A stretch of 63,257 nt of DNA, counting the filler, from an uncultured bacterium (GTDB lineage: Bacteria; CAYJRR01), in assembly GCA_964372275.1 (NCBI GenBank). It is 6 parts of 6 records of this genome, joined end to end, with 100 filler letters (N's around TTAATTAATTAA, not from the genome) between each part and the next. Parts side by side here need not be neighbours in the genome. Positions count along the whole stretch, not along the records: positions 11,169 to 22,154 come from CAYJRR010000146.1; 5 more parts are not named here. One strand, given 5' to 3'. Numbering within the stretch: position 1 is the first letter of the stretch; every line of letters begins with the position of its first letter. This document shows positions 11,069 to 33,139 of the stretch, one piece after another. The notes beneath the pieces are model-generated. The model was not told the DNA's origin, searched no databases, and saw only the letters and a program-made list of their open reading frames with translations. Both the position numbers and the translations under genes were made by a program.

Positions 11069-11168
11069 NNNNNNNNNNNNNNNNNNNNNNNNNNNNNNNN
11101 NNNNNNNNNNNNTTAATTAATTAANNNNNNNNNNNNNNNNNNNNNNNNNNNNNNNNNNNNNNNNNNNN
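11069..11168. other. Artificial contig spacer (N44-TTAATTAATTAA-N44)
   Basis: N run with an all-frame stop linker. Confidence 0.99.
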
Positions 11169-12657: not shown

Positions 12658-12740
12658 GGGAAGCGTCCGACCCGGATCTTATCGTTCCGGGCGCGCGATC
12701 CCGCCAATCCGGTCTTTGTTCCCCGAAAAAATCGGGATGG

Positions 12741-13133
12741 TCAGCCGCCGCCGCCGGTGGCCAGGAAGGCCACCAGGGCCACGATCCCGAACAGGGCCAC
12801 GACCATCAGCGGCCAGGAGACGCGCGCCCCCGACGCCTCGTCCACGCGGGTCGAACGCTCGGGCGATTCGTGACCGTCGAGCACCCGGATCGCGCGCATC
12901 GCGATCCCCTGCCCGTCACCGCCCAGGTAGTCGCCGTAGGATCGCAGGAATCCGCGCGCGAAGACCCGTCCCGGCAGCTCCTCGTAGCGATCGTCTTCGA
13001 TCGCGATCAGGAACTCCTTCCGGATCTTCGTGGCGCGCGAGACCTCGTCGAGCGAGAGGTTCCTCTCCTCCCGCATCCGCTTCAGCGCCTTCCCGACACT
13101 TTCGCTCATGGGCGCGGAGTCGGAGGTAGACAT
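12741..13133 (-). CDS. RodZ-like HTH_25 membrane protein (short form)
   Basis: VGKALKRMREERNLSLDEVSRATKIR..LIAIEDD..LPG..FARGFLRSY plus a C-terminal TM helix. Confidence 0.85.
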   Translation of the reverse strand: MSTSDSAPMSESVGKALKRMREERNLSLDEVSRATKIRKEFLIAIEDDRYEELPGRVFARGFLRSYGDYLGGDGQGIAMRAIRVLDGHESPERSTRVDEASGARVSWPLMVVALFGIVALVAFLATGGGG

Positions 13134-13175
13134 TCCTCCGGGACCTTCAACCCCTGATTATGCCGCTTCCCAGGC

Positions 13176-13955
13176 CTATCTGCCGAGTGATCTCAGGTAC
13201 CGGTCGGCATCCTTTCCGATCGGACCGTCGGGATCGCGGGCCTTGGCCTTGAGCCAGAAGTCCCTCGCATCGCTCGGCTTCTTCGTCTCCCAGTAGACCA
13301 GCCCCGCCACCAGATAGGGCTCCGGCCACTCCGGGCACTCCCGTATCGCCCGGAGCATGCTTTGCAGGGCGTCTTCGTAGCGCTTGACCTCCCGCTCGGC
13401 CGTTCCCTTGTTGACAAGCGCCATGCAGAAGCGCGGCTGCACCCGCAGCGCCCGCTCCGCGTAGGCGATCGCCTCGGTGAACTTCCGCTGTTCGAGCGCG
13501 GATTTGGAAAGGTTGTTGAGCGGCCGTTCGGGGGTCCGGTAGCCGGGATCGTGAAGCGCCTTCTCCAGCTCGACGACGGCCTCGGGAAATCGCTTCAGCT
13601 CGACGTAGAGCGCCCCCAGGTTGTTGTGCCAATCGCCGGGGACGTCGTCCCCTTTGAGCCTGAACGAATCGAGGATCCATCTCTCCGCCTGGAGCTTCAA
13701 ACCCTCGTCCTTGAGAAGTCTTCCCTTGGCCCAATAGGCCATTCCGAGGAGGTGGGTGATCTCCGGATCGTCCGGACGGTTCCGGCGCGCGATCGTCAAG
13801 TCGGCGACCGCCCCTTCGGCATCCCCCTCCTGCAGCTTCGCGCTTCCGAGCTGGGTGTGCTGTTGGGACGCGATCTGCCGCTTCTGCCCCCCGCAGCCGG
13901 CAACCAGGAGCATCGCCCCTCCGAACACGATCGCCGCACGCATCCTTCGTTCCAT
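13176..13955 (-). CDS. tgl: Type IV pilus secretin-assembly TPR lipoprotein (Tgl/PilF/PilW family)
   Basis: Lipobox VAGC, TPR repeats, HNNLGALY, 'ALHDPGYRTPE..NNL', 'PRFC' and 'ECP' cysteines; lies between rlmN and rodZ. Confidence 0.8.
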   Translation of the reverse strand: MERRMRAAIVFGGAMLLVAGCGGQKRQIASQQHTQLGSAKLQEGDAEGAVADLTIARRNRPDDPEITHLLGMAYWAKGRLLKDEGLKLQAERWILDSFRLKGDDVPGDWHNNLGALYVELKRFPEAVVELEKALHDPGYRTPERPLNNLSKSALEQRKFTEAIAYAERALRVQPRFCMALVNKGTAEREVKRYEDALQSMLRAIRECPEWPEPYLVAGLVYWETKKPSDARDFWLKAKARDPDGPIGKDADRYLRSLGR

Positions 13956-13978
13956 CGCCGTCCCCCTACTCGCCTACC

Positions 13979-15247
13979 CTAGAGCATCGACAGCAGTCTC
14001 AACAGCGTTTCGGTCGACTCGTCGACCGGGCTCCGCCCCGGCGCGGTTCGCGGCCGGACGAGTCCGACCGCCTCGGCCGCGCCGCGGGTGCCGGCGCGCG
14101 GCGGGCGAACCGCTTCGCGTGCGGGAGGCGCATCGAGCGCCACCGAGCGCGATTCGTCGGTGTTGTCGTCGAGGAACTGCGAAACCTCCTCGGTCAGCGC
14201 TCCGGTGCTGGACGGCGAAGGCGCGAAGTCGAGATCGGCCAAGACCGCGTCGACCGAAAGTTCGTCCGCCGAGCTCGCGCGGGCCGCGGAGCGATCCTCG
14301 CCGTCGTCGGACAGCACCTCGCGCAACGCGTCGGTCGGCTCGAGATCGTCGCCCTCGGAGCCCGGCGGATCGCGCAGGACCTCGTCGATCGTCCGTTCGG
14401 CGGTCGGGGAGGCGGGAACGGAGGAGGCGGCGCTCGTCGGGACGGCCCCGACCGGCGCCATCCGCGCACCGGCCGTGAAGATCCCCTGGTCGTACACCTC
14501 CATCGTCGGCTCGACGGGGGTCAGCTCGGCCTCGCCGACCGATTCGATCTCGGTCAGCGCGTCGTCGAACGCCAGCGGCGTCTCCTCTCCGCGCTTCGCC
14601 CCTTCGTCCGCCGCGGGCCCGTCGAACGAGAGCGCCTCGAGCGCCTCGATCTGCGAGACCTCGAACTCCGGTCCCTCGTCCGGCGAAACGACTGGACCCT
14701 CGTCGGAGAGGGACGGGAGGTCGTCCTCCAGGAAGTCGGCGGTGGTCGCCTGCCCCGCCTCGGCGCGCGCCGCCTTGGCGCGCTGGAACTCCTCCAAGGG
14801 ATCGAGGGGCGCGGCGGGAACGCCCGTTCCCGAGCCTTCGACCGCCGCCTCCTCGAGTCCGCTGACGTCGGCGAGGAATGGCGGCAGCGTCCCCACCAAC
14901 GTCGCCCGCCGGCCCGGATCGAGCCCTTCCAACTCCAGGTCGGCGAGCAGGAAGCCCATCGACTCGCAGAAGGCGGACGCGTCCCCCCACGCCTCGTCGA
15001 TCGCGTCGATCGCGACCGGCCCTTCGGCCCGGGCGTAGAGGAGCGAGCGTTTCGAATCGAGGAGGTGGAAATGGACCAGCACCTCCCCCTCGCCGGTCGA
15101 CAGGCGCCTCGCGACGACGTAGGCCTGCACCCGTTCCGCCGGCTTGTCGTCGGCGGCGACCAACGGCGTGTTGAGTGACCGGGCGAGGGAGATCGGCTCG
15201 CCGCCGGCCGGATCGACCCACGTTCGCTCGGCGTCGAGGAGGAACAT
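13979..15247 (-). CDS. Myxobacterial tgl-associated protein with acidic disordered C-terminus
   Basis: ATG 15247; 'SLNTP.VA...QAYVV...AFCESMGF' resembles the protein encoded upstream of tgl in myxobacteria (recalled, not searched). Confidence 0.7.
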   Translation of the reverse strand: MFLLDAERTWVDPAGGEPISLARSLNTPLVAADDKPAERVQAYVVARRLSTGEGEVLVHFHLLDSKRSLLYARAEGPVAIDAIDEAWGDASAFCESMGFLLADLELEGLDPGRRATLVGTLPPFLADVSGLEEAAVEGSGTGVPAAPLDPLEEFQRAKAARAEAGQATTADFLEDDLPSLSDEGPVVSPDEGPEFEVSQIEALEALSFDGPAADEGAKRGEETPLAFDDALTEIESVGEAELTPVEPTMEVYDQGIFTAGARMAPVGAVPTSAASSVPASPTAERTIDEVLRDPPGSEGDDLEPTDALREVLSDDGEDRSAARASSADELSVDAVLADLDFAPSPSSTGALTEEVSQFLDDNTDESRSVALDAPPAREAVRPPRAGTRGAAEAVGLVRPRTAPGRSPVDESTETLLRLLSML

Positions 15248-15273
15248 CGGGGCTCCAGGCGAGTGTACCTTGG

Positions 15274-16140
15274 CTACAGGTACTTGCCCACCAGGAGCTC
15301 GAGCCGTTCGCGCGTCTTCGGCGGGATCGACTTGGGATCGGTCATCACCGCGAACTTCATCGCGGATCCACATCCGCATCGCGGCGCCGCGCCCTGCCGG
15401 TCGGCGCGCGGACCGGCCAGCGCCACCGTCTTCCGTGCGCTTTCGATGTTCTTGGCCATGACGGCCATCACCGCCTCCACCGTGACCGGCGCCTCCCCTT
15501 CGTGCCAGCAGTCGTAGTCGGTGGACAGGGCCAGGGTCGCGTAGCAGAGCTCCGCCTCCCGCGCGAGCTTGGCCTCGGGGAGGTTGGTCATGCCGATCAC
15601 CGCGACCCCCGACGCGCGATAGGAGTGGCTCTCGGCGCGGGTGGAGAACTGCGGGCCGTTGATGCAGACGTAGGTGCCGCCGCGGTGCACGGTCGCCCCC
15701 GCGTCGCGCGCCGCGGCATGGAGCGTCGCCGCGAGATCGGGACAGACCGGATCGCCGAACGAGACGTGACCGACGATTCCATCGCCGAAGAAGGTCGAGA
15801 TCCGTCCGTGGGTCCGGTCGAGGAACTGGTCCGGGACGACGAGGTGTCCGGGGTGGATCTCCTCCTTCATCGATCCGACCGCCGAGACGCTGATCACGCG
15901 CGTGACCCCCAGCTTCTTGAGGGCCCACACGTTCGCGCGGAAGTTGATCTCGTGCGGCAGGACGCGGTGCCCGCGGCCGTGCCGCGGCAGGAAGACCAGC
16001 TCCGTGCCGTCGAGGCGCCCGGTGAGGAGCTGGTCCGACGGCGATCCGAACGGCGTCGCCACCTCGATCCACTGCGCGCCGGTGAACCCTTTTAGCTCGT
16101 ACAGCCCGCTTCCGCCGATGATCCCGATCTTCTCCGCCAT
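15274..16140 (-). CDS. mtnP: S-methyl-5'-thioadenosine phosphorylase
   Basis: IGIIGGSGLY, TPFGSPSD, PRHGRGH, GPQFSTRAES, GMTNLPEAKLAREAE, TDYDCW. Confidence 0.95.
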   Translation of the reverse strand: MAEKIGIIGGSGLYELKGFTGAQWIEVATPFGSPSDQLLTGRLDGTELVFLPRHGRGHRVLPHEINFRANVWALKKLGVTRVISVSAVGSMKEEIHPGHLVVPDQFLDRTHGRISTFFGDGIVGHVSFGDPVCPDLAATLHAAARDAGATVHRGGTYVCINGPQFSTRAESHSYRASGVAVIGMTNLPEAKLAREAELCYATLALSTDYDCWHEGEAPVTVEAVMAVMAKNIESARKTVALAGPRADRQGAAPRCGCGSAMKFAVMTDPKSIPPKTRERLELLVGKYL

Positions 16141-16577
16141 CAAGCCTCCGACCGTGCGCGACGCGCCACCGACGCCGCCCACGCGGCGGCGACGCCCCCG
16201 AGGAGTAGCCCGGTGGCGACGCGCAGTGTATTCGTGCTCTCGCGGAATCCGAAGAGCTGGGTGAGCCCGTCGGCCGCCATCGGAGCGGTGGCGGGGAGGA
16301 GCATCCACAGACGGGGTCGAAGCGGGGCGAACGCCCCGAGGACGAGCCCCGCCGCGATCCCGGCGCAACGGGCGCAGACCGCCATCGGTTCGCCGGCGAG
16401 GTGGAGCGTGCGCTCGGGAAGCTGATGGCAGAACAGGCGGAACGCCGCTTCCAGCAGGCCGGCGAGCCCTGGCTGATCGCGAGCCGCGAGGAGCGGCGAG
16501 GCGACGGCGAGCGCGAGGTAGACCGCGGGCGGGACGGCGATCAGGACGTCCGGCGCCCGGGCGAGCGCCATCGCCAT
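16140..16577 (-). CDS. DUF2085 membrane protein
   Basis: CHQLPERT, MAVCARCAGI, DGLTQLFG.RESTNTLR.ATG; start could be GTG 16655. Confidence 0.85.
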   Translation of the reverse strand: MAMALARAPDVLIAVPPAVYLALAVASPLLAARDQPGLAGLLEAAFRLFCHQLPERTLHLAGEPMAVCARCAGIAAGLVLGAFAPLRPRLWMLLPATAPMAADGLTQLFGFRESTNTLRVATGLLLGGVAAAWAASVARRARSEA

Positions 16578-16660
16578 CCGACCCGCCGCCGAGGAGAGCC
16601 GGTCTGCGGCGGACCGGAGAGCGGCGTCGCGGACCGGGGACCGGTCGTCGTGCACCCGCG

Positions 16661-17350
16661 TCAGGCCACGTTCGGTGCGAGGGACCCGCCCTTCGCCCGG
16701 GCCAACCGCAGCACCTGCCCGTACGCGTGCCCCTGGATCATCATCGCCCACGCCGCCGTGAACAGCGCGCCGATGCAGAAGAGGACGATGCCGAACTGCG
16801 CGATGAACTGGCCGACCACCCCGACCAGGATCGACAGCACGACGTTCATGCCGTTCTCCTTGACGAAGTTGAAGACCTCCATCGGACGGAACGCCGCCGC
16901 CATCTCGCCGGTGTCGATCATGCGGAGGATCCCGATCGGCGCCAGCAGCCCGCCGAGCACCATCAGCGGCATCCCGAGACAGTAGGCCGCCAGCATGAAG
17001 GGCACCCCGGCCGCTTCGGCCCCGCCGGTTCCGCTGGAGCGCGCGATCTCCTGCGTGATCCCCATCATCAGACCGCCGCCGAAGAAGAAGATCAGTCCGG
17101 GCAGCGTGTAGCAGAGGGAGACCACGAACATCTTGAAGCCGTAGGCCAGGTCGTCGCCGAACTGGTCGAGCTCGGGGCAAGGGGTGTCGTTCCCCTCCGC
17201 GACCTGGAGGATGATCCGGCGCTGGTAGCCCATCAGCACCATGACCCCGAGGATCGGCAGCAACATGTAGACGCCGGCGAGCAACACCTTCTTGAGCCAG
17301 TCCCTGTCTTCGAACACGAACTGGAACGGCCGCGCGAAATCGAAGTTCAT
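16661..17350 (-). CDS. DUF4013 membrane protein
   Basis: F.FVFEDRDWLKKVLL..LLPILG...GY, several TM helices, HAYGQ. Confidence 0.82.
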   Translation of the reverse strand: MNFDFARPFQFVFEDRDWLKKVLLAGVYMLLPILGVMVLMGYQRRIILQVAEGNDTPCPELDQFGDDLAYGFKMFVVSLCYTLPGLIFFFGGGLMMGITQEIARSSGTGGAEAAGVPFMLAAYCLGMPLMVLGGLLAPIGILRMIDTGEMAAAFRPMEVFNFVKENGMNVVLSILVGVVGQFIAQFGIVLFCIGALFTAAWAMMIQGHAYGQVLRLARAKGGSLAPNVA

Positions 17351-17429
17351 CGAGTGCCCTCCGGCCGGATCGTGTCCGATCGGCGCGGCGGAAGTAAAGC
17401 GCCGTCGGTCGGCCCTCCCGGTTGCCGCG

Positions 17430-18584
17430 TCAAGTCGCCGGCAACGTCGGAAGGCGGCGGCGGGCCTTGCCGCCGGTGTCGGTCGCGAGTTGACCGCAGG
17501 CGGCGAGGATCCGGCGTCCGCGGGTCTGGCGCACGAAGGCGAAGAACCCCTTGGCGATAAGGGCATCGCGGAAGCGCGTGAGCTCCGCCGGCTCGGGACG
17601 GCGGAACTCCGAACCGGGCCACTCGTTGAACGGGATGAGGTTGATCTTGCAGGGAAGACCCTTCAGGAGCGTCGCCAGGCTGTCGACGTCCTGGGGTCGG
17701 TCGTTCACGCCGCCGAGGACGACGTATTCGAACATCACCACCTTCTTCCGCGGCATCGGATATCGCCGGACCGCGTCGACGAGGGCCTCGACCGGGTACT
17801 TGCGGTTGATGGGGACGATCCGATCGCGAAGCTCGTCGGTCGCCGCGTGCAGCGAGACGGCGAGGTTCACCGGCAGCTCCTTCGACAGCCGCTCCATCTC
17901 CGGCAGCAGCCCCACCGTGGAGACCGTCACCCGACGGTGGGAGAAGTTCATCCCCCGGTCGTCGAGGAGGATCTTGAGCGACCGGACGACGTTGTCGACG
18001 TTGTGCAGCGGCTCCCCCATCCCCATGTAGACGAGGTTGGTGATGCGCCGCTCCGGGTGGAGCCGCTGCACGGCGAGCACCTGCTCCACGATCTCCCCGG
18101 CGCGCAGGTTGCGGGCGAGCTTCATCGTCCCGGTGTGGCAGAAGGCGCACGCCATCGCGCACCCCGCCTGGGTCGAGACGCACAAGGTGACCCGATAGCC
18201 GTCCGCCGCGCCGTCCGGTTCGAGCTCCCCTTCGTCGATCCCGGGGATCCAGACCGCCTCGACCTTGGCGCCATCCTCGAGCGAGAAGAGATACTTGGTG
18301 GTTCCGTCGTCCGCACGCTCGGTCCGCACCGGCTCGAGGCGACTGACGTAGGCGGTGCCTTTCAGCTCCTCGCGGGTCGCCTTCGCCAGGTTGGTCATGG
18401 CGTCGAAGTCGGTGACGTCCCGTTGATGGATCCAGCGGAAGATCTGCTCCGCGCGGTAGCCGGCCTTGCCCTGGTCGACGAGCCGGAGCGTCAGCTCGTC
18501 TCTGGGGAGGTCCTTCAGGTCGACCTTTTCGGCGCCACGCCGGGGTCCGGACGATTCCCCGGTGGAGCGCGCATGCGCGGACAT
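17430..18584 (-). CDS. rlmN: 23S rRNA (adenine-2503-C2)-methyltransferase
   Basis: CVSTQAGCAMACAFC, MGMGEPLHN, SLHA, NLIPFN, AACGQL; start probably ATG 18584. Confidence 0.96.
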   Translation of the reverse strand: MSAHARSTGESSGPRRGAEKVDLKDLPRDELTLRLVDQGKAGYRAEQIFRWIHQRDVTDFDAMTNLAKATREELKGTAYVSRLEPVRTERADDGTTKYLFSLEDGAKVEAVWIPGIDEGELEPDGAADGYRVTLCVSTQAGCAMACAFCHTGTMKLARNLRAGEIVEQVLAVQRLHPERRITNLVYMGMGEPLHNVDNVVRSLKILLDDRGMNFSHRRVTVSTVGLLPEMERLSKELPVNLAVSLHAATDELRDRIVPINRKYPVEALVDAVRRYPMPRKKVVMFEYVVLGGVNDRPQDVDSLATLLKGLPCKINLIPFNEWPGSEFRRPEPAELTRFRDALIAKGFFAFVRQTRGRRILAACGQLATDTGGKARRRLPTLPAT

Positions 18585-18624
18585 TGGAACCGCCGACGCT
18601 AACAACGGAATTCGGACATGGCAA

Positions 18625-18653
18625 TTGGACTCCCCTGTGGCTTCGTGTACGAT
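18625..18653 (+). promoter_or_regulatory. Putative sigma70 promoter of tatA
   Basis: TTGGAC-17 nt-TACGAT with a TG just upstream of the -10; GGAGG RBS before ATG 18677. Confidence 0.35.
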
Positions 18654-18676
18654 GATCGTCAAGGCGGAGGTCGTTC

Positions 18677-18937
18677 ATGCCTCACATCGGCGGCTTCGAA
18701 CTGGTCATCATCTTGCTGGCGGCCGTCGTCTTCTTCGGCGCCGCGAAGATCCCCCAGCTCGGAAACTCCCTCGGCCTCGGGATCAAGAACTTCAAGAAAG
18801 CCTTGAGCGGCGAGGAGATCGACGTCAGCCCCAAGGTGAAGAAGAAGAAGGATTCACCGGCCCTGGAGTCGAAGACCCAGGCCGAGGAAGAGGACGAAGA
18901 AGAGGAGGAGGAGCCGGCGGCGGCACGGAAGCCGTAG
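18677..18937 (+). CDS. tatA: Twin-arginine translocase TatA/E subunit
   Basis: IGGFELVIILLAAVVFFGAAKIPQLGNSLG.GIKNFKK; acidic tail. Confidence 0.92.
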   Translation: MPHIGGFELVIILLAAVVFFGAAKIPQLGNSLGLGIKNFKKALSGEEIDVSPKVKKKKDSPALESKTQAEEEDEEEEEEPAAARKP

Positions 18938-18943
18938 GCTCTT

Positions 18944-19690
18944 CTAGGAGTTCGCCGTCCCGCCGCGTCGCCGCGTCAGCATCTCCCGCGCCGCCTCCCG
19001 CACCTTCTCCGACAGTTCCAACGATCCGGCAACCTCGCGCAGGTCGCGCGACTGGAGATACGGCAAAAGCGAGATCGCCGTGTGCGTCGGCAGGTAGGGG
19101 TTGAAGACGAGCGCCTTCTTCACCCGATAGCGCGGGCTCCATCGGGGCGAGCGAAGGACTTCGTCCAATACGGCCGGGGTGGTCGGCCGCATCGCCGCGA
19201 GCTTCACCGCGTCCCGCTCGGTCAGCCGCGCGTTCTCGAGCACCACCCGGATCACCTCCGGGTTGCGATCGAACATCATCCGGTCGAGCAGATCTCGGTC
19301 ACGGGTGCGCGCCAACGATTTCCGTTCTCCGAGCGTCTTCTCGCCGGCCAGGTGCTCGTTCTCGACCTTGTCCTTCGCCGCCGCCCGGCGACTCACCTCG
19401 GAAGTCGCCACCAGCCGCTTCACGTCTTCGTAGCCGAGCTCGTCCGCCACGCAGTAGAGGTCGGCAAGCCGTTCGTATCCGACCTGTTTCTGGTACCGGT
19501 TCAGTCCGACGCACGCGAGCATCGCCACGCGCGCGTCGTCGTCGGACGCCTCCGCCAGCCGCACCAGGTCGTGCAGAAGCTCGACCGCCGCGCGCACCGG
19601 CAGCTCCTGCAGCCGCTCCGCCACCTTCCGCTCCCGTTGCGGAAGCTCGGGGAGGAGCGCCAGCTCGCGAGCGAACGGCTTGGCGTCCAC
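18944..19690 (-). CDS. Conserved helical-repeat hypothetical protein
   Basis: GTG 19690; 'TLGERKSLAR..DRDLLDRMMFDRNPEVIRVVLEN.RLTE' and 'RYRVKKALVFNPY' HEAT/LRV-like repeats. Confidence 0.75.
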   Translation of the reverse strand: MDAKPFARELALLPELPQRERKVAERLQELPVRAAVELLHDLVRLAEASDDDARVAMLACVGLNRYQKQVGYERLADLYCVADELGYEDVKRLVATSEVSRRAAAKDKVENEHLAGEKTLGERKSLARTRDRDLLDRMMFDRNPEVIRVVLENARLTERDAVKLAAMRPTTPAVLDEVLRSPRWSPRYRVKKALVFNPYLPTHTAISLLPYLQSRDLREVAGSLELSEKVREAAREMLTRRRGGTANS

Positions 19691-19696
19691 CCCGCG

Positions 19697-19734
19697 ATTG
19701 TACGGCGGTCTCCGGATCGGCCATCCGCTACAAT
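19697..19734. promoter_or_regulatory. Back-to-back TACAAT -10 boxes (divergent, probably leaderless promoters)
   Basis: TACAAT on + (19729-19734) lies 7 nt before ATG 19742; TACAAT on - (19702-19697) lies 6 nt before GTG 19690; no SD sequence on either side. Confidence 0.5.
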
Positions 19735-19741
19735 CCGCACG

Positions 19742-19951
19742 ATGGCGCTCAAGGCGACCGTCGACGCGAGCCTGACGGAGAGGCTCCTCGACCAGGGCTT
19801 CCTGCTGGCCGACGACGACGAGGTGAAGATTCGTCTGGCGATCGAGGACGGGCGGGTGGTGCTGGTGCTCTTCGCCCACGACGCGCGCCGGGTGCAGAGG
19901 CTCCTCGCCGGCGTCGATCCGGCGCAGGTGCGCGTGGAGCTGTGCGGGTGA
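19742..19951 (+). CDS. Small protein ending in LCG, FtsH-ternary-system-associated peptide-like
   Basis: 69 aa: ...VKIRLAIEDGRVVLV...LLAGVDPAQVRVELCG; stop overlaps the next GTG. Confidence 0.6.
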   Translation: MALKATVDASLTERLLDQGFLLADDDEVKIRLAIEDGRVVLVLFAHDARRVQRLLAGVDPAQVRVELCG

Positions 19952-21060
19952 ACGAGGCGACGCCGCCCGGCGCCGCCGTCGCCCCCGCCGGCCAGCGGAC
20001 GCCGTTCGGTCGGCCCGAAGAACGATCGTTCGTCGGCTTCGTGCGCGGACTCTACGGATTCGACGGCGTGGCCGCGGCGACGCCGCGCCGGGCGGTCGAC
20101 CTGGCGACCGGGCTCGAGGTCCGCGACGGGGTGCGACCGCTGCTCGCGGCGGTGGCCCCCGTCCTGGTCCACGGCACTTGGCGCTACCTGGCAACGATCG
20201 GCGGATACCGTCACGCGCGCGTCGTCGTCGGAGGCCGGGAACGCGTCGGGCGAATCTGGGACGAGGCGATGTGGGGCCGGGAGCCTCTGCGGATCACCGG
20301 CCGCTCCGTGCTCTGGCTCGCCGCGGCGCACGACGCCCTGGCCGGCGACGACGAGGCGGCGGCCCGGGCGCTCGATCTCGCGGTCGGCCCACCGATCGAG
20401 GCCGGCGATCGTCTCGCCCTGTCGGCGGCGGTGCCGGCGCTCCGGGCACGGTGGGACTCGCGGCTGCCGGAGCCGGTGCGGTCGCTGGCCGCGCGGCTGC
20501 CGTTGCCGGCGCTCCTGGACCCGATGGCCAACGGGGACGAGCCGATCGACCTGCCTGCCCACGAGGACGCCGAGTCGTTGGCCCTGCAGTACGCCGCGGA
20601 CTCGATCGCCAACGCTTGGGCCGAGGCCCTCGCGGTGAAGCTCCGCCTCGGGGCCGATCGGTCGTTGCACCGTCTCCACGGCCGGCTCGCCGAGCTGTTC
20701 GACGCGCTGTTCCGGACGGCGATCGACGGGACCTTCGACCACCGGCTGGTCCCGGTGGCCCGCGTGCTCTCCCAACTCTGGCGCCGGCTCGGTGGCGCCG
20801 AACAGGTGGAGGCGTTCGTCACCCGCGCGTCGGCGAAGCTGCCGACCCATCTCGAACGGGAGGCGTTCGAGCGCGGCGTCGGCGCCGTGCTCCAGGCCGG
20901 GGAGCGGCTCGACGATCGGGTCCGCGCGATCCTCTCGATCCCCTGGCCCGATCGCACCGACGCCCAGAAACGGCTGGCCGCGGAACACGAGACCCGGTAC
21001 CGTCCGATACACGCGTCGGTGCGCATCCTTTCGCGCCGGTTGCGGCGGGAGATCGGTTGA
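19948..21060 (+). CDS. FtsH ternary system X6-like protein
   Basis: 'LATIGGYRHARVVVGGRERVGRIWD...LRITGRSVLWL' resembles the GGWR..R..R.G....GRLW motif of fvmX6 (recalled); otherwise helical. Confidence 0.6.
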   Translation: MNEATPPGAAVAPAGQRTPFGRPEERSFVGFVRGLYGFDGVAAATPRRAVDLATGLEVRDGVRPLLAAVAPVLVHGTWRYLATIGGYRHARVVVGGRERVGRIWDEAMWGREPLRITGRSVLWLAAAHDALAGDDEAAARALDLAVGPPIEAGDRLALSAAVPALRARWDSRLPEPVRSLAARLPLPALLDPMANGDEPIDLPAHEDAESLALQYAADSIANAWAEALAVKLRLGADRSLHRLHGRLAELFDALFRTAIDGTFDHRLVPVARVLSQLWRRLGGAEQVEAFVTRASAKLPTHLEREAFERGVGAVLQAGERLDDRVRAILSIPWPDRTDAQKRLAAEHETRYRPIHASVRILSRRLRREIG

Positions 21061-21064
21061 TCCC

Positions 21065-21664
21065 ATGAGCTACCCGTACCGCGTGGTCGTCTCGCGCAGC
21101 GTCGAGGAGACCGTCTCCTCCAAGGACGAAAGCCGCAACCGGATCTCGCTCACGCCGATCCTCCCGCCGGCGCGCATGGGCGAGCTGTTCCGCAAGGCGC
21201 TCGGCCGTAGCGGCTTCGCCGAGCGCGAGGACGGGCGGTGGATCCGCTCGCGCGACGGCGTCACCGAGGTCTTCGACCCGGCGAGGTTGGTGTTCGCCGC
21301 CACCGCCGAGGCGGCGGGGGAGATCCGAAAGGAGCGAACCGTCGAGGTCCGGGGCGACGCCCTCCGGCCCGACGAGGTCGAGCCGGGCAAGCGCCACGCC
21401 GAGGCCGAGGTCGGCGCGAAGCTGGAGAAGGAGCTGAAGGTGACCGACGCCGAGCGGGCGCGGAAGGCCGAGGAGCTCCTCGCGTCGGCCCGGCAGTCCC
21501 TCGAACGGACCGAGGCCGCGCGCGTCCGAAGCTTGAACGAAGCGACGCTCGAAGCCTACGCCGAGGCGATCAAGGAGAAGGCCCGCTCCCTCGGCGAAGT
21601 GAAGGAGATCCGCGAGCAGCGCCGCGAAGCCGCGGCTCCGGTCCACTTCAATGGAACCGGATAA
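21065..21664 (+). CDS. FtsH ternary system X5-like protein (last ~10 codons chimeric)
   Basis: MSYPYRVVVSRS...ILPPARMGELF..ALGRSGF...EAYAEAIKEKARSLGEVKEIRE resembles fvmX5 (MSRAYRI.V.ES...ALK.KA..LG.I.E). Confidence 0.65.
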   Translation: MSYPYRVVVSRSVEETVSSKDESRNRISLTPILPPARMGELFRKALGRSGFAEREDGRWIRSRDGVTEVFDPARLVFAATAEAAGEIRKERTVEVRGDALRPDEVEPGKRHAEAEVGAKLEKELKVTDAERARKAEELLASARQSLERTEAARVRSLNEATLEAYAEAIKEKARSLGEVKEIREQRREAAAPVHFNGTG

Positions 21665-21826
21665 GGGTTTTAAGAGGCCCAAAATGCCTTTAAGGAAAGT
21701 TGTTTTTCCGCTTCCATTGGGTCACACCAAGCCCACGCTGTCTCCCGAGTCAACCGTACAGATAACATTTTCCAGGACGGTTTTTCCCGGATAGCCTAGA
21801 TTCGTGTTTTCAAATCGAATAATCAT
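21625..21826 (-). pseudogene. Fragment of a metal ABC transporter ATP-binding protein (ZnuC-like), foreign DNA, in-frame TGA
   Basis: MIIRFENTNLGYPGKTVLENVICTVDSGDSVGLV*PNGSGKTTFLKGILGLLKPLSGSIEV; TGA at 21724-21722 replaces the Walker A Gly; breaks off at the junction. Confidence 0.75.
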
Positions 21827-21928
21827 TTGGAGGGACGCGCTCCGCCGCGTCCGTTTGTCCATGCCCATGGGCAGGCCACGACGGAGCGCGGCCCTTCAAG
21901 GGAAAATGACGAATCGGAACAGGCGCAG

Positions 21929-22154
21929 TCATTCAAGCGCTTTGGAAATTGTCAGGATGTTGTAATCCATCATGCTGAAGTAATCCACCGCTTCCTTAAC
22001 GGCTCCGGGCGTGATGGCCATGAGCGCCACCTTGGCGCCGGTGGCTTTGGCTATTTTTTCCGGATTGCGTTTCTCAAACCAAGGGTCCGTCAGGATCAGA
22101 GAAACGCCTTTGGCTTTCATTTGGGCGATCAGCTGGGCGGTGTGGGTTGCCGTG
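21929..22154 (-). CDS. C-terminus of a metal ABC transporter substrate-binding protein (ZnuA/TroA family), foreign lower-GC DNA
   Basis: TATHTAQLIAQMKAKGVSLILTDPWFEKRNPEKIAKATGAKV..ITPGA....DYFSMMDYNI..ISKALE. Confidence 0.8.
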
Positions 22155-22254
22155 NNNNNNNNNNNNNNNNNNNNNNNNNNNNNNNNNNNNNNNNNNNNTT
22201 AATTAATTAANNNNNNNNNNNNNNNNNNNNNNNNNNNNNNNNNNNNNNNNNNNN
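22155..22254. other. Artificial contig spacer
   Basis: N run with TTAATTAATTAA. Confidence 0.99.
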
Positions 22255-23391: not shown

Positions 23392-23778
23392 CTATTTCTT
23401 CTGAGCGGCGGCGCGTTCGTTCGCCTGGATCGCGGACCAGCCGCTTCGCAAGACGGTGAGAATCTTCGCGGCCTCGTCCAGCGCGGCGGAGCTTCCGGCG
23501 ACGTTCGCCTCGACGAGCAGCGAAGAGATCCGGGCATAGAGCGCCTGGAGCGTCCTGGCGAGCTCCGGCGCGGGACGCGGGTCGATGGCGCTCGAGAGCT
23601 CGTGGACGATGGCGAGCGCACGGGAAACGTAGGAGCCGCGTTCGGCGCGGTTGTCATTTGCAATCGCGACCTTGGCTCGACCGATCGCCTTCAGGGCGCC
23701 GTCGTAGAGCGCAATCACGAGCGCGAGAGGGGAGCGCGTGCTGACGTCGTTTTCGAAGTACTGGTGGTAGCCGTTCAT
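23392..23778 (-). CDS. fliS: Flagellin export chaperone FliS (copy 4 in transcription order)
   Basis: Y.ENDVSTRSPLALVIALYDGAL, ALAIVHELSSAID, LY, L.EAN, LRSGW. Confidence 0.9.
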   Translation of the reverse strand: MNGYHQYFENDVSTRSPLALVIALYDGALKAIGRAKVAIANDNRAERGSYVSRALAIVHELSSAIDPRPAPELARTLQALYARISSLLVEANVAGSSAALDEAAKILTVLRSGWSAIQANERAAAQKK

Positions 23779-23845
23779 CGAAGGCTCCTCGTGCTTCTCC
23801 GGTCAGGTGTCGGTGTTGCCACGGACGCGGCCGGAGGGCTCGGTA

Positions 23846-24679
23846 TCAGAAGCGGAGCAGTTGGAGAACCGCCTGCGAGAGCGTGTTCGCCTGCGCGAGC
23901 ACCGACACGCCGGCGCTCTGGAGGACTTGGCCACGGGTGAACGCGGCGGTCTCGACCGCCATGTCGGCGTCCCGGATCCGGCTCTCGGCGGCAATCGTGT
24001 TCTGCACGAGGCTGCCGATGGTCGTGATCGTGGTGTGCATGCGGTTGGCGGCGGCTCCGAAGTCGCCACGAGCCGCGTTGACGGTCGCAAGCGCGCTGTC
24101 GAGGCGCGCAACGGCGGTTTCGATCGCTCCGGTCGACCCGTTGATGAACGTCGTGTCGAGCGAGAGCGTCGTGATCGTGGTGTCGACCGCGGAGATCGTG
24201 ATCGTGTCGTTCGCGGTCGTGAAGCTTCCGACCTGGAAGACGAAGCCACCCGTGGCGGTGCCGTTGAGGAGCGGGACGCCGTTGAAGGCCGTGACTTCGG
24301 AGATTCGTCCGATCTCGTCCTTCATCGCCTGGTATTCCTTGTCGAGGGCGTCGCGCTCGGTGGTTCCGTTAGTGCCGTTGAGCGACTGGATCGCCAGCTC
24401 CCGCATGCGGATCAACATGCTGCTGATCTCGTTGAGCGCGCCGTCACCGATCGTCGCGACCGAGATGCCGTCGTTCGCGTTCCGTTGCGCCTGTTGGAGC
24501 GAACGGATCTGGGCTCGCATCTTCTCCGAGATCACGAGGCCGGCCGCGTCGTCGCTGGCGGTCGCAATCCGAAGTCCGCTCGAGAGCCGGCCGATCGACG
24601 TCTCGATCTGCCGAGACGTCGACGAGAGGTTGCGCTGAACGGCGAGGCTGGCGGTGTTGGTATTGATTGCGAGGGCCAT
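23846..24679 (-). CDS. fliC: Flagellin (277 aa)
   Basis: MALAINTN, RLSSGLRI.TASDDAAGL, RNANDGIS, RIRDADMAVE, LAQAN....VLQLL. Confidence 0.96.
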   Translation of the reverse strand: MALAINTNTASLAVQRNLSSTSRQIETSIGRLSSGLRIATASDDAAGLVISEKMRAQIRSLQQAQRNANDGISVATIGDGALNEISSMLIRMRELAIQSLNGTNGTTERDALDKEYQAMKDEIGRISEVTAFNGVPLLNGTATGGFVFQVGSFTTANDTITISAVDTTITTLSLDTTFINGSTGAIETAVARLDSALATVNAARGDFGAAANRMHTTITTIGSLVQNTIAAESRIRDADMAVETAAFTRGQVLQSAGVSVLAQANTLSQAVLQLLRF

Positions 24680-24730
24680 GGTCGACTCCTTCGGTGTTGG
24701 AAGAGAATTCGAAGCGTCCGTTCGGGTCCG

Positions 24731-25084
24731 CTAGTTTCGAAGCTCCGAGGCGCTTCGTTTTTCGATCTCGACCCACGCGCTACGCAGGGTCGAAAGTGTC
24801 TGGGCGGCCTGGGTCAGGGGCTCCGTCGAACGCTGCTGGTTCGCCCGTACCAGCAGGGACGCCACGTCGGTGTACTGCCGGAGCAGGCTGCGTGCGAGGG
24901 CCGGAGAGAATCGAAAGTCGAGGGACTCGGCAAGCTGGTGGACGATCGCGACCGCCAGCGTCACGTGCCGGCTCAACGCGCCCGGATCGCCTTGTCGGAC
25001 CGCTCCCAGGGCCCGATGGATGGCCGCGATCGCGTTGTCGTAGAAGCTGATCAAGAGCTCGATGGGGGTCGCTGCGTTGGACAT
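24731..25084 (-). CDS. fliS: FliS paralogue (copy 3)
   Basis: ATPIELLISFYDNAI, AVAIVHQLAESLD, LLVRAN, LRSAW. Confidence 0.82.
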   Translation of the reverse strand: MSNAATPIELLISFYDNAIAAIHRALGAVRQGDPGALSRHVTLAVAIVHQLAESLDFRFSPALARSLLRQYTDVASLLVRANQQRSTEPLTQAAQTLSTLRSAWVEIEKRSASELRN

Positions 25085-25109
25085 GTGCCTCTCCTCGAAA
25101 TACGCGCTG

Positions 25110-25379
25110 TCAGAGCTCTCGCGACAGTTCCCGGCGGAACAGGTACTTCAGCGCCTTGTCGATCGACGCGATCTCCTCCGAATGGATCGCGAGCTGAACC
25201 GAGAGTGCCAGCGTCCGATCGCCATCCGCCCCGCCTTCCGCGCCATCGAGGAGCTCCATCGCCTTCCGGAACGCCTCGATCGCCTCGGGGTCCTCGCTCG
25301 CCAGGAAGGCCTTCACGGCGGTGCGGCCCTGCGCCGCGACTTCCTCGATCGTCTCGTCCGTCGTCGGTCGATGATCCAT
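25110..25379 (-). CDS. Small helical protein, FliT-like (paralogue of 27026-27319)
   Basis: GAGGA RBS; aligns by eye with 27026-27319 (EE.A..GR...A.L / LSVQLA....IASIDKA); position after fliS. Confidence 0.6.
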   Translation of the reverse strand: MDHRPTTDETIEEVAAQGRTAVKAFLASEDPEAIEAFRKAMELLDGAEGGADGDRTLALSVQLAIHSEEIASIDKALKYLFRRELSREL

Positions 25380-25432
25380 GGCGTTCCTCGTCGGCTCGAA
25401 AAGGGTTGGATGGTCCGTCGGGTCGGTGCGTT

Positions 25433-25750
25433 TCAGGCCCAGGCTCGCCGGAGAACGGCGAGGATCTTCTCGGCGGCGTCGAGACTCGCGACATCGCTGG
25501 ACCGATTCGCGTCGAAGAGCAGCTCGGCGACCTGTACCAGAAGCGCATGAACCGTCTCGTGGTGACGTGAACGGCCATGGTCAAATCGCGCGGAGAGCTC
25601 GTGCACCTGCGACAACGCATCGGCGACGAACTCGGCCTGCTCCTGCGAGCTGCGGATCTCGATCGCGATCCGGGCGTTTCCGATCGACCGCAGCGCTTCG
25701 ACGAATGCCGCATCGATCTCGGTGTCGACTGCGATGGTTCGTGCATTCAT
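25433..25750 (-). CDS. Divergent FliS-like protein (copy 2)
   Basis: ALRSIGNARIAI, ALSQVHELS, LLFDAN, LDAAEKILAVLRRAW; lacks the N-terminal Y/SP.LV.LYDG motif; AAGGAG RBS. Confidence 0.7.
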   Translation of the reverse strand: MNARTIAVDTEIDAAFVEALRSIGNARIAIEIRSSQEQAEFVADALSQVHELSARFDHGRSRHHETVHALLVQVAELLFDANRSSDVASLDAAEKILAVLRRAWA

Positions 25751-25765
25751 GGCCTGCTCCTTGGG

Positions 25766-26593
25766 TCAAAAGCGAAGTAGTTCCAGCGCCGCCTTGTTGA
25801 GGCCGTTCGTCTGAACGAGGATCGCGACACCGGCGTTCTGGAGGACCTGGATCCGGGTGAACTCGGCCGTCTCGGCCGCCATGTCGACATCGCGGATGCG
25901 GCTCTCGGTGACGACGGCCGCGTGGATCGCACCGGCGATGGCCGTGGTCGTCCGCTCGAGGCGGTTGACGATCGCGCCGAATCGGGCCCGGATCGTGCTG
26001 ACCTTGTTGATCGCGGCGTCGATCGCCGGAACGGCGCTTCGCGCTGCCGACGTGGTGCCTACGGAGACGGTGGCGATCCCCAGTGCGGTGAGCGTCGTGC
26101 TCGCCGCCGTCACCTGAATCACGTCGGTCGTGGTGGCGAAGGCCCCGACCTGAAAGTCGAGCGAGGAGACGGTTCCGGCCAGAAGGGGAACGCCGAGGAA
26201 CGACGTGCTCTTGGCGATCCGCTGGACTTCCGCGGTGAGGGCCTGGAGCTCGTTGTCGATTACCGTCCGCTCAGTCGTCGCGTTGGTTGCATTCAGCGCC
26301 TGAATGGCGAGCTCGCGCATCCGGGACAGCATCGACGTGATCTCGGCGAGCGCGCCGTCGGAGGTGTTCGCCATCGAGATTGCGTCGTTCGCGTTCCGCT
26401 GGTTCTGGTTCAGGGCGCGGATGAACGAACGAAACCTCTCGGAGAGCGCCAGACCGGCCGCGTCGTCACTTGCCGACGCGATCCGATGTCCACTGGAGAG
26501 GCGTCGCGCCGACGCTTCGAGCTTCCGCGTCGAGAGCGCGAGGTTTCGCTGCGCGCTCAAGCTCGAGATGTTCGAATTTACGGAGACGCCCAT
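25766..26593 (-). CDS. fliC: Flagellin (275 aa)
   Basis: ATG 26593 MGVSVNSN, RLSSGHRIASASDDAAGL, RNANDAIS, SRIRDVDMAAE. Confidence 0.95.
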   Translation of the reverse strand: MGVSVNSNISSLSAQRNLALSTRKLEASARRLSSGHRIASASDDAAGLALSERFRSFIRALNQNQRNANDAISMANTSDGALAEITSMLSRMRELAIQALNATNATTERTVIDNELQALTAEVQRIAKSTSFLGVPLLAGTVSSLDFQVGAFATTTDVIQVTAASTTLTALGIATVSVGTTSAARSAVPAIDAAINKVSTIRARFGAIVNRLERTTTAIAGAIHAAVVTESRIRDVDMAAETAEFTRIQVLQNAGVAILVQTNGLNKAALELLRF

Positions 26594-26645
26594 TTTCGGT
26601 TTCCTCGTCGTCCGTCGCTTCGCTGCTCGCGACGTTCTGATCCTC

Positions 26646-26672
26646 AAGACGGAATCCGTGGGCGACTGTTTA
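26646..26672 (-). promoter_or_regulatory. Possible sigma28 promoter of the first flagellin
   Basis: TAAA-N15-TCCGTCTT upstream of fliC 26593 (consensus TAAA-N15-GCCGATAA). Confidence 0.4.
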
Positions 26673-27025
26673 GCGACTTTTCGAAAAACTCTTCGTCCCG
26701 GCTACGACGCCGTGCCGGTGCGAGATGGAGAGGGCGCGGTGTGGAGGCGCGATCCCGCGAAGATCGCGCGAGGCGAGACGGGCGGAACGACGTGCGCGGC
26801 TGGCCGTACGGCGCGTCGGTGCACTCGGCGCGAACGACCGTCCAGTGGCGGCGAGTACGCCCGCGCGCCTCCTGTCATCGTTCCATAAGGGGGGCGATAC
26901 GACGATGACCTGCCGCGTGTGCGGCCGTTCGTCGGCTGCGCCTCGGGTGGACGCGTGCGAACGACGACCACTCGACCGACCGTCAATTCGCTGACGATGT
27001 CTCGATCGCCCGCGAGAACCGGTTC

Positions 27026-27319
27026 TTAGAGGGAGTAGGGCCCGACGGCTCCGGCCAGGAGCGCGTTTCGTGCCCGGTCGATGGCGTCAAGATCGTGACG
27101 CACTTGTGCGAGCTGGCATGCGAGGGTCGAGATTCCGTCGTCCCGGTACGATTCCGGTCGCCGGGCGCGGGTGGCCTGAATCCGTCGAGCGAGCTCGTCC
27201 CTCTTTCGGAGCCCCTCCTCGACGCGATCGAATCGTCCGTCCAGGGCGGCGCGGGCGATGCGACGGCCCTCCTCGGCGAACTCGGTCCACGGATCGCCGG
27301 CGGTCGGTCCGGGTCTCAC
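27026..27319 (-). CDS. Small helical protein, FliT-like
   Basis: GTG overlaps the fliS stop; WTEFAEEGRRIARAALDG.FD.VEEGLRKRDELARRI; canonical fliD-fliS-fliT position. Confidence 0.6.
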   Translation of the reverse strand: MRPGPTAGDPWTEFAEEGRRIARAALDGRFDRVEEGLRKRDELARRIQATRARRPESYRDDGISTLACQLAQVRHDLDAIDRARNALLAGAVGPYSL

Positions 27320-27699
27320 GCCGACTCCGAGGATCGGCGGCCGTCGAGGAGTTGCCGCCACGTCGACCGGAGGGCGACGAGAAGGCGTTCCGCCTCGTCC
27401 AACCGATCGGCGTCGCCGGAAAGGTTCGTCTCGACCAGACGTCGGGCGATGCGGGAATAGAGGACACGGAGTCTCTCGGCCAACTCGGGAGCGGGCGCCG
27501 GATCGAGGCTGGTCGACAGGTGGTGCACGATGGCCAGCGATCGAGCGATGTTCTCCGCGGCGTCGGCGCGCCGACGAGTCGCGAGGGCCGTCCGCGCGCG
27601 CGCGAGCGATCGGATGGCCCCGTCGAACAGGGCGACGACGATTCCGAGCGGCGACGCGGTCGCCAGGTCGTGCTCGCGATAGCTCTGGCTCCGCTCCAC
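27316..27699 (-). CDS. fliS: Flagellin export chaperone FliS (copy 1)
   Basis: SYREHDLATASPLGIVVALFDGAI, SLAIVHHLSTSLD, LY, LVETN, LRSTW. Confidence 0.9.
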   Translation of the reverse strand: MERSQSYREHDLATASPLGIVVALFDGAIRSLARARTALATRRRADAAENIARSLAIVHHLSTSLDPAPAPELAERLRVLYSRIARRLVETNLSGDADRLDEAERLLVALRSTWRQLLDGRRSSESA

Positions 27700-27708
27700 C
27701 TCGAGCTC

Positions 27709-29019
27709 CTAGTAGCGATTGAGCGCGATCAGCGAATCGCTCTGCTGGCGCATCTTCGCCATCGTCGTTTCGAGTCTTCCGAACTTGTCCTGGAGCTCCT
27801 GGCGGCGCTTCTCCAGGCGCTTCTCCCATTGGTCGATCTCCCGTCCGAGGGAGGTCGACTGTCGCCGCAGAGCCGCCGCTCGCAGGGCCAGTTCGCCGCT
27901 GGACGGGTCGATCAGCGACTTGACGGAATCCTTCAGCGTCTTGACCAGACCCTGGGTGTCGGAGACGAAGGTGATCACTTCGTCTTCCCGGTCCTCGAGG
28001 GCCTTCTTGAACTTGGCGGCATCGAGCTTGAGCGAGCCGTCGCGTTCGGACTTCATTCCGATCTCGCTGATCGTCTCGATCCCGCCGGCCTGACCGGACG
28101 TCGCGAGGGCGTTCCGGAGTGCGGAGAGGACCGAGCGCGCCTTCGTCTCGCCGGCCAAGCCGCCGCCGGAGGCGACCTCTTTCGCGGCGAGGGAGCGGGC
28201 GTCGTTGTAAGCGTCGACGATCGCCTTCATCCGGTTGTAGGCGGTATCGACGTCCGGCTGCACGGAGAAGTTGTAGACCTTGGGAGTCGTGGTCTCCGTC
28301 AGGTGGATCGTCACGCCGGAAAGGAAGTTGGTGATGTCGTTGCTCGGGCTGTAGACCTCGACCCCGTCGATCTCGACGCGCGAGTCGGCGGCGGCGACCT
28401 TCTGGGTGAAGGTGATCCCGGAGCCTCCGGAGAGACCGGAGTCGTCGATCACCACGGTGTTGGCGGCGCCGGAGTTGTCTGCGTACACCAGCAGACGGTA
28501 CGGGTCCCCCGCGCCGTCGTTGATCACGGTGGCGGTGACGCCGATGTCCGCCCCGTTGATCGCGTTCCGGATCCCGACCAGACTGTCCTGGCCGGGTCCG
28601 ATGGTGATCGTGTACGGCGTGCCGGCGACGGTGATGTCGATCGATCCGGTGCCGATCCCCGTCGCCGTGTCGGAGGCGAAGTCCTCCGACAGCTCGGTAT
28701 CGCGGGCCGCGAGGCTGATCACCTTGAGGGTGTGCGTGCCGGTCGCCGCGCCGTCCTTGACCTCGATCGTCGCTCCCGCCGTCGGGTTCGTCGCCTTGCG
28801 CGTCGCGAGACCGGTCGTGTTGTTGAGTGGATCGAGGCTCGTCGAGAAGGCGCGAACCTTGGCCGCGAGGCTGTCGAAGGTCTTCGCCCGATTGTCGACG
28901 TCCGCCTGCTTCGCCCGCAGGCGGTCCTGGGGAATCTTCTCGGAATTGAGGATGGCGTCGATGATCGCCTTGGTGTCCAGGCCGCTGATGACGCCGCCGA
29001 AATTTACCGCCGAGCTCAA
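27709..29019 (-). CDS. fliD: Flagellar filament cap protein
   Basis: TTG 29019; FGGVISGLDTKAIIDAIL, IRNAIN, SNDITNFLSGVTIHL, DGSLKLD..KFKKAL, KFGRLE. Confidence 0.93.
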   Translation of the reverse strand: MSSAVNFGGVISGLDTKAIIDAILNSEKIPQDRLRAKQADVDNRAKTFDSLAAKVRAFSTSLDPLNNTTGLATRKATNPTAGATIEVKDGAATGTHTLKVISLAARDTELSEDFASDTATGIGTGSIDITVAGTPYTITIGPGQDSLVGIRNAINGADIGVTATVINDGAGDPYRLLVYADNSGAANTVVIDDSGLSGGSGITFTQKVAAADSRVEIDGVEVYSPSNDITNFLSGVTIHLTETTTPKVYNFSVQPDVDTAYNRMKAIVDAYNDARSLAAKEVASGGGLAGETKARSVLSALRNALATSGQAGGIETISEIGMKSERDGSLKLDAAKFKKALEDREDEVITFVSDTQGLVKTLKDSVKSLIDPSSGELALRAAALRRQSTSLGREIDQWEKRLEKRRQELQDKFGRLETTMAKMRQQSDSLIALNRY

Positions 29020-31055: not shown

Positions 31056-31170
31056 GGAGCCCAGGTCTGCAGGGAATGTGCCCGATAAATCGAGCGAATA
31101 TCGCTGATTCGACGGAGATCGAAAGAGGGGGGCGTCACGCCTTTGACGGTGACGCGTCAATCACTCCGGA

Positions 31171-32055: not shown

Positions 32056-32059
32056 GACG

Positions 32060-33039: not shown

Positions 33040-33139
33040 NNNNNNNNNNNNNNNNNNNNNNNNNNNNNNNNNNNNNNNNNNNNTTAATTAATTAANNNNN
33101 NNNNNNNNNNNNNNNNNNNNNNNNNNNNNNNNNNNNNNN
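33040..33139. other. Artificial contig spacer
   Basis: N run with TTAATTAATTAA. Confidence 0.99.

Follow-up and report, generated by a model that had tools for sequence, protein, structure and literature searches.

A variant of the FtsH ternary system: a detached fvmX6-fvmX5 pair with a new small partner gene in housekeeping synteny

Are three tightly packed genes in the DNA of an uncultured bacterium (CAYJRR01) the front end of a larger operon cut short by a faulty assembly, or do they form a unit of their own? The genes lie at positions 19742 to 21664 of the 63-kb stretch analyzed here (63,257 nucleotides [nt], fillers included; hereafter, the window). A first-pass annotation took them for the associated peptide, X6, and X5 components of an FtsH ternary system and placed the remaining genes of the system beyond a chimeric junction. 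The "simple" radical-SAM subtype of this system is vWA-MoxR subsystem 3 (Kaur, Burroughs, Iyer, and Aravind, eLife 2020, PMC7159879). The system has MoxR AAA+ and vWA as its core pair and an FtsH-type protein with one inactive and one active AAA+ domain (PMC7159879). Peptides of the FtsH-associated type are small precursors that share a conserved C-terminal motif and accompany a radical SAM enzyme and a metallopeptidase. The system is known only from comparative genomics, and X5 and X6 are without a known function or a solved relative. Our literature search found no paper naming fvmX5, fvmX6, PF20003, or PF20004, and the phrase "FtsH ternary" appeared only in the 2020 paper. None of the later papers listed on MoxR-vWA ternary systems, judged by title or the start of the abstract, was about the FtsH ternary system. 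No experimental paper was found, in agreement with the first-pass description of the system as experimentally uncharacterized.

The locus is a variant of this known system, namely a detached X6-X5 pair with a new small partner, set in housekeeping synteny. We give a probability of about one-half to the reading that the pair, together with its partner of 69 amino acids (aa), is a detached sub-module of the FtsH ternary system, whose other components are encoded elsewhere in the genome and on which the pair acts in trans. The parts of the locus are as follows.

19742 (ATG) to 19951 (TGA), positive strand: pep, the first gene of the operon, an open reading frame for a 69-aa protein ending in VELCG.
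19948 (GTG, 370 aa) or 19942 (GTG, 372 aa) to 21060, positive strand: the divergent fvmX6 gene (gene 2).
20200 to 20259, positive strand: the GGYR...GR.R.GRIW motif, the most conserved stretch of the X6 family.
21065 (ATG) to 21664 (TAA), positive strand: the X5 reading frame (gene 3), 199 aa.
21065 to 21627, positive strand: native fvmX5 sequence, encoding residues 1 to about 188, delimited by PF20003, by alignment with homologues, and by agreement with contigs from sequencing runs.

The TGA of pep overlaps the GTG at 19948 (GTGA), with a GGAG 7 nt upstream of that start, and the X6 stop and the X5 start are 4 nt apart. Third-position GC content (GC3) is 0.96 in pep, 0.90 in X6, and 0.95 in X5, in agreement with the remainder of the 70% GC contig. 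This high GC3 and the existence of homologues for each of the three set the genes apart from chance reading frames. They form a three-gene, translationally coupled operon, just as the three tightly coupled positive-strand genes had been described in the first pass.

Gene 3, whose product begins with MSYPYRVVVSRS and contains EAIKEKARSLG, matched the Pfam family PF20003 (fvmX5) with an E value of 3e-21 and 76.6 bits, well over the cut-off of 24.2, at profile positions 1 to 175 of 187. By this match, gene 3 is a true fvmX5; the profile check that the first-pass annotation had suggested for its X5 candidate thus bears it out. The profile positions missing at the C terminus are due to the misassembly. 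Homologues of X5 are 205 to 206 aa long, a length kept by all 14 close ones, and they cease to match gene 3 after ...EIREQRRE, residue 188, at a junction between 21627 and 21628. About 18 C-terminal residues (NGxGGxEYELVIKV...) are lost. Judged from the homologues, this is all that the misassembly costs, and the damage to the system is small.

Gene 2 had to be identified by a less direct route. A direct Pfam scan gave no match at an E value of ≤1, and the gathering score of PF20004 (27 bits) was not reached; its closest relatives scored 19.5 to 25.9 bits on the same profile. Among 5.8 billion proteins, only two were close relatives (41 to 42% identity). A profile of three X6 sequences matched 50 proteins among 1.84 billion representatives. 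Leaving out the window's own protein and ten shorter ones (57 to 309 aa, several of them fragments), we scanned 39 of these, 30 of which hit PF20004 at an E value of ≤0.01 and 21 of which exceeded the cut-off. Aligned by hhalign with 11 canonical fvmX6 sequences, gene 2 matched with a probability of 99.94% and an E value of 9.4e-37 over 337 columns. Two of the 11 (from loci L001 and L003) were found independently through their adjacency to X5 and match PF20004 with E values of 1.6e-40 and 4.5e-32. Given the profile-profile match and the PF20004 hits among its profile relatives, the evidence is indirect but strong that gene 2 is a full-length, divergent fvmX6. The X6 assignment of the first-pass annotation therefore stands, by virtue of profile-profile comparison, with the direct PF20004 scan blank.

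Residues 85 to 104 of gene 2 read GGYRHARVVVGGRERVGRIW. The motif noted there earlier, GGYR..R...G..R.GRIW, is present, although its spacing as written is one residue short. G85 and G86 are invariant and R102 is nearly invariant in 32 sequences, and a GG.R...GR.W pattern is common to gene 2 and recognized fvmX6 members. The homologues are full length, and an alignment of three X6 sequences contains 121 invariant columns. An AlphaFold2 (AF2) model with a predicted local distance difference test score (pLDDT) of 90.3 and a predicted template modeling score (pTM) of 0.87 is all-alpha except for a single beta-hairpin, in keeping with the helical protein described in the first pass. The predicted hairpin is arginine rich, spans residues 90 to 101 (strands 90 to 94 and 97 to 101), and directly follows GGYR. 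Searches with this fold returned a best E value of 0.065 with template modeling (TM) scores below 0.26 in Foldseek, and in VIA-align a best Z score of 7.7 to generic helical repeats, which lies within the stated noise for helical proteins. Sequence searches of the PDB with the X6, X5, and pep profiles gave nothing better than an E value of 0.29, and the X5 and X6 proteins, like that of pep, drew blanks in PADLOC and PHROGs.

What lies downstream of X5 in related genomes bears directly on the question of a truncated operon. Two metagenome contigs, L004 and L005, carry related loci. The gene order in L004 is the same as in the window, comprising DUF4013, RlmN (71% identity), TatA (59%), h251 (60%), X6 (43%), and X5 (56%), and a convergent TonB_C gene comes after X5. 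In L005, the X5 of which is 53% identical to that of the window, a carboxyl transferase gene follows 15 nt after X5. FtsH thus follows X5 in neither of the two relatives whose contigs extend past X5. A maximum-likelihood tree built from 54 X5 proteins places the window together with L004, L005, and 14 proteins from databases in a single clade (17 rows; support, 100/99), the first split of which separates L004 from L005 and the window. Because L004 and L005 sit across this split, the simplest account is that the association with FtsH was lost at the root of the clade. On the upstream side, no dedicated radical SAM gene adjoins X6 in the window, where pep and h251 are found instead. The pairing of X6 with X5 was kept after detachment. 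The first-pass annotation had placed the remaining genes of the system past the junction, an expectation that is not supported for FtsH, MoxR, and vWA genes, since other genes follow X5 in both of the relatives that bracket the window. By this comparison, the pair is unlikely to be the start of an unbroken operon that the end of the contig truncates.

The canonical gene order, found in L003 and L002 and partly in L007, is radical SAM (Fer4_12), X6, X5, FtsH (AAA plus Peptidase_M41), X3-analog, X7 (PF20005; about 1100 aa), bpMoxR (PF20030), and ivWA (PF19997). The dedicated radical SAM gene of the Fer4_12 type is directly upstream of X6 in L001, L003, and L007, and in L001 and L002 the stop codon of X5 and the start codon of FtsH overlap. 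We evaluated how regular this arrangement is in a sample of 401 genomes from the phylum of G003, in which the best RlmN identity to the window was only 53%. X5 was found in 29 genomes, and 25 of 30 X5 loci have an FtsH-like gene no more than 1.5 kb downstream. ivWA exceeded its cut-off in 27 genomes, all of them among the 29 with X5 and none among the 372 without. Since ivWA tracks X5 across the 401 genomes, X5 is tied to the system at the genome level, even when detached.

Five genomes of the sample (G114, G123, G149, G363, and G403) have such a detached X5, and all five carry X7 and ivWA on other contigs. The 3.5-kb loci examined at these X5 genes contain neither an FtsH nor an X6 gene; the neighbors are TPR, Vut_1, sigma-70, response regulator, or YhhN genes. 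In G363, G123, and G403, the X6 gene lies on a different contig; in G114, it lies 3.2 kb upstream of X5, and in G149 it was not found. The main cluster of G123 contains X6, FtsH, X7, MoxR, and ivWA without X5. In the X5 tree, the detached proteins of the phylum sample form at least two further independent groups.

Two variations of locus structure were seen besides these. In L029 (645 to 2034) and L036 (1486 to 2875), from two genomes and one X5 clade, the detached X5 gene stands head to head with a Vut_1 family transporter gene, which makes the latter a recurring neighbor. In L001 (12697 to 16871), from a metagenome-assembled genome, the FtsH-like gene is followed by genes for an ATP-grasp protein, an unknown protein, and CorA in place of X3-analog, X7, MoxR, and ivWA; L001 is another partly dispersed system.

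The first gene of the operon, pep, has two homologues, which are 83% and 81% identical to it and also 69 aa long, and the C terminus VRVELCG is invariant in all three sequences. By this conservation, pep is a real, conserved gene. It had no Pfam match at an E value of ≤1 and only sub-threshold noise in NCBIfam, and an Atlas search was blank. tblastn found no significant relative in L001 to L007, and a hidden Markov model found none in the 39 related loci L001 to L039. Neither a radical SAM nor a peptidase gene adjoins pep; the only radical SAM gene nearby is the housekeeping RlmN, syntenic with L004. With no family match, no dedicated radical SAM gene next to pep, and no relative in the 39 loci, its first annotation as the associated peptide of the system is not supported. 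A search for peptide genes upstream of the canonical radical SAM genes yielded only a 144-aa acidic open reading frame in L001 and none in L003 or L007. The AF2 model of the pep product, a beta-alpha-beta-beta-alpha-beta arrangement, is of low confidence (pLDDT, 66; pTM, 0.46), and a fold search with it gave only generic ferredoxin-like folds at E values of ≥0.07, which were not relied on. Its identity as an X3-analog was considered as well and was ruled out (hhalign probability, 0.4%).

A sequence, GCTAC(A/G)ATCC, located 7 to 9 nt before the first ATG of the operon is conserved between the window (19726 to 19746) and L004 (4201 to 4221). In the window, that first gene, pep, has no Shine-Dalgarno sequence ahead of its ATG, and a scan for sigma-70 promoters at the operon found no site. 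The conserved sequence is a hint of a shared promoter and may be the -10 element of a leaderless or short-leader transcript.

How might such a unit work? We envisage that pep, X6, and X5 are transcribed together from a fixed chromosomal site among DUF4013, RlmN, TatA, and h251. X6, as modeled, would be a scaffold made of helices and bearing a conserved hairpin rich in arginine. X5 would pair with it, as in the canonical operons, in which both are flanked by the radical SAM gene on one side and by the gene for a soluble FtsH-like protease on the other. Because X6 and X5 travel together without the enzymes, they appear to be a self-contained sub-module and probably form a physical pair. This pair is probably an adaptor, or a regulated substrate, for the FtsH-like protease and the MoxR-vWA chaperone pair, a role suggested by the overlap of the X5 stop with the FtsH start in L001 and L002. 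By analogy with the five genomes in which X5 is detached and X7 and ivWA are on other contigs, the window's organism probably encodes the enzymes of the system elsewhere, and X6-X5 would act on these partners in trans, expressed from a promoter of its own. The 69-aa protein would then probably be a small added subunit of X6. A role in defense can be inferred from the 2020 comparative analysis, which is its only source.

Several observations weigh against this reading. The presence of FtsH, MoxR, and vWA partners elsewhere in the window's genome is assumed by analogy with other X5 clades, in which X5 moved alone, whereas in the window X6 and X5 moved together. FtsH, X3-analog, X7, bpMoxR, AAA_5, and ivWA were absent from the 64 proteins scanned across the window, which holds no NTPase of the system at all. 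The window X5 is on a long branch and scores 76.6 bits, compared with 133 to 182 for the top eleven loci of the phylum sample, so that its function could have changed. Because L004 has no 69-aa gene, with 42 nt between h251 and X6, pep is not essential to the X6-X5 pair. Finally, the downstream view past X5 is short, 184 nt in L004 and 2.5 kb in L005. Alternatively, pep, X6, and X5 may have been freed from the conflict system and may now have a cellular role that needs no FtsH, MoxR, or vWA and is linked to the fixed set of housekeeping genes around them. The distinct, well-supported, long-branched X5 clade fits such an autonomous module, as do the weaker Pfam scores (with X6 under the Pfam threshold), the host-like GC3 of 0.90 to 0.96, the gain of a highly conserved new partner gene, and the lack of PADLOC and PHROGs matches. 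Moreover, the order of six genes is still the same in L004 at an RlmN identity of 71%, a sign of long vertical residence. We nevertheless consider this alternative rather unlikely, given that ivWA is present in 27 of the 29 X5 genomes, including all five with a detached X5, and that the fold searches, with a best X6 match at the noise level for helical proteins (Z score, 7.7), suggest no independent function. It is just as tentative to regard the trio as a three-protein module exapted into a vertically inherited role, in which the 69-aa protein, whose C-terminal Cys-Gly is invariant, would serve as a regulatory subunit of a new type.

That the window instead holds a contiguous FtsH ternary operon, with FtsH, vWA, and other genes directly downstream and hidden by the misassembly, is what 25 of the 30 loci of the phylum sample would predict. 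We consider it improbable because both relatives that bracket the window in the tree have other genes after X5 and because the canonical upstream radical SAM gene is also absent, its place being taken by a small gene and by h251, the latter also present in L004. It is more improbable still that the genes are a decaying remnant of a lost system without a present function. Their detachment from all enzymatic partners at the locus and the divergence of X6 (41 to 46% identity to its nearest relatives) would be in line with decay, but the frames are intact, all 14 close X5 homologues keep 205 to 206 aa, the X6 homologues span the full length, the three-sequence X6 alignment has 121 invariant columns, the model of X6 is highly confident, and translational coupling is retained. 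A detached sub-module acting in trans is the reading that we retain.

The end of the contig, where X5 is truncated, consists of the following parts.

21628 to 21664, positive strand: the artefactual tail of the X5 frame, AAAPVHFNGTG and then the stop, unaligned to homologues; GC3 of these last 11 codons of gene 3, 0.64.
21645 to 22154, negative strand: a foreign patchwork with a GC content of 0.53.
Within 21645 to 22154, negative strand: the N-terminal fragment of an ABC ATPase, with an in-frame TGA inside Walker A.
21827 to 21899: a hairpin inverted repeat with 26-nt arms (81% complementary) and a 21-nt loop.
21929 to 22153, negative strand: a ZnuA-like C terminus (E value, 7e-7).

We compared Logan contigs of four public runs with positions 19700 to 22154. 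Among the pieces listed for runs X1 to X3, the longer ones (about 130 nt and more) cover most of 19700 to 21627 with 0 to 1 differences; positions 21278 to 21297 are not among them. One 225-nt contig of run X1 equals 21438 to 21627 and continues with 35 letters unlike the window, and a second, of 350 nt, is common to the window only over 21607 to 21644. Contigs of runs X2 and X3 show a further divergence at 21710. None of the run contigs listed bridges 21627. There was also no run contig for 21914 to 22154, a lack of cover that was counted as no proof. The break in homologue alignment, the divergence of run contigs, and the drop in GC content together confirm the chimeric junction that had been placed near 21630. 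Sequencing depth at 21832 to 21913 was 137 to 672 in runs X1 to X3, as opposed to about 1 to 26 over the operon genes, and the hairpin repeat occurs in many short contigs of these runs with variable letters between its arms. The repeat is a high-copy element of a foreign organism, which probably explains why the assembly error arose here. An Rfam scan of 21500 to 22154 was blank. The contig end is the kind of patchwork that graph misassembly typically leaves at low coverage, and the last 0.5 kb of the contig is unfit for biological interpretation.

The in-frame TGA of the ABC ATPase fragment (21722 to 21724, negative strand) stands at the first glycine of Walker A (GLV*PNGSGKTT). A recoded codon was considered and rejected, since the TGA is within the patchwork and about 12 nt from the contig divergence at 21710, making a chimeric join more likely.

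The window as a whole consists of six contigs of about 11 kb each, joined by N44-TTAATTAATTAA-N44 linkers (six-frame stop spacers). Because these contigs are separate, gene order across the linker points is meaningless. The contig carrying pep, X6, and X5 is 11169 to 22154, with a GC content of 0.70 in its body. The linkers and the upstream neighbors of the operon are as follows.

11069 to 11168, 22155 to 22254, 33040 to 33139, 43854 to 43953, and 54478 to 54577: the linkers.
16664 to 18937: the housekeeping synteny block common to the window and L004, with DUF4013 (negative strand), RlmN (negative strand), and TatA (positive strand), assigned by Pfam.
18944 to 19690, negative strand: h251, a 248-aa helical-repeat protein, the divergent neighbor of the operon, 60% identical to its L004 equivalent.

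h251 has no Pfam match and was also blank in PADLOC and PHROGs. Its nearest Atlas clusters are labeled "leucine rich repeat variant" or hypothetical and are mostly from Myxococcota; one has 871 members. h251 is context only and lies outside the X6-X5 module. Elsewhere in the window, 4948 to 6987 (positive strand) encodes a 680-aa protein with a hemopexin repeat and a PhoD-like phosphatase domain. A flagellar filament cluster at 23395 to 32881 (negative strand) comprises three flagellin-like genes, four FliS paralogues, FliD, a 679-aa MptE-like protein, and FlgK; its contig has a lower GC content, 0.65 to 0.68. The presence of this cluster points to an unusual trait or else to an error in binning.

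Having three genes and no ATPase, the unit offers a small object for learning what X5 and X6 bind. Since the genes of the system can lie scattered across the chromosome, searches based on operons undercount or misjudge such systems.

How does the locus compare with known systems? With the other MoxR-vWA ternary systems (the VMAP, iSTAND, and beta-propeller classes), it has in common only the theme of a multicomponent predicted conflict system, and the window holds no VMAP, iSTAND, MoxR, or vWA protein; the Pfam names of X5 and X6 tie these two proteins to the FtsH class alone. It resembles the dispersed systems of the five sampled genomes in that X5 lies away from FtsH among unrelated genes. 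In those genomes, however, X5 moved alone, and the X5 proteins belong to other clades. Compared with the "simple" subtype of the FtsH ternary system, the window locus is without radical SAM, FtsH, X3-analog, X7, MoxR, and ivWA, and its pair sits in conserved housekeeping synteny with an extra 69-aa gene before X6. What it shares with that subtype are homologues of X6 and X5, tightly coupled and in the canonical order.

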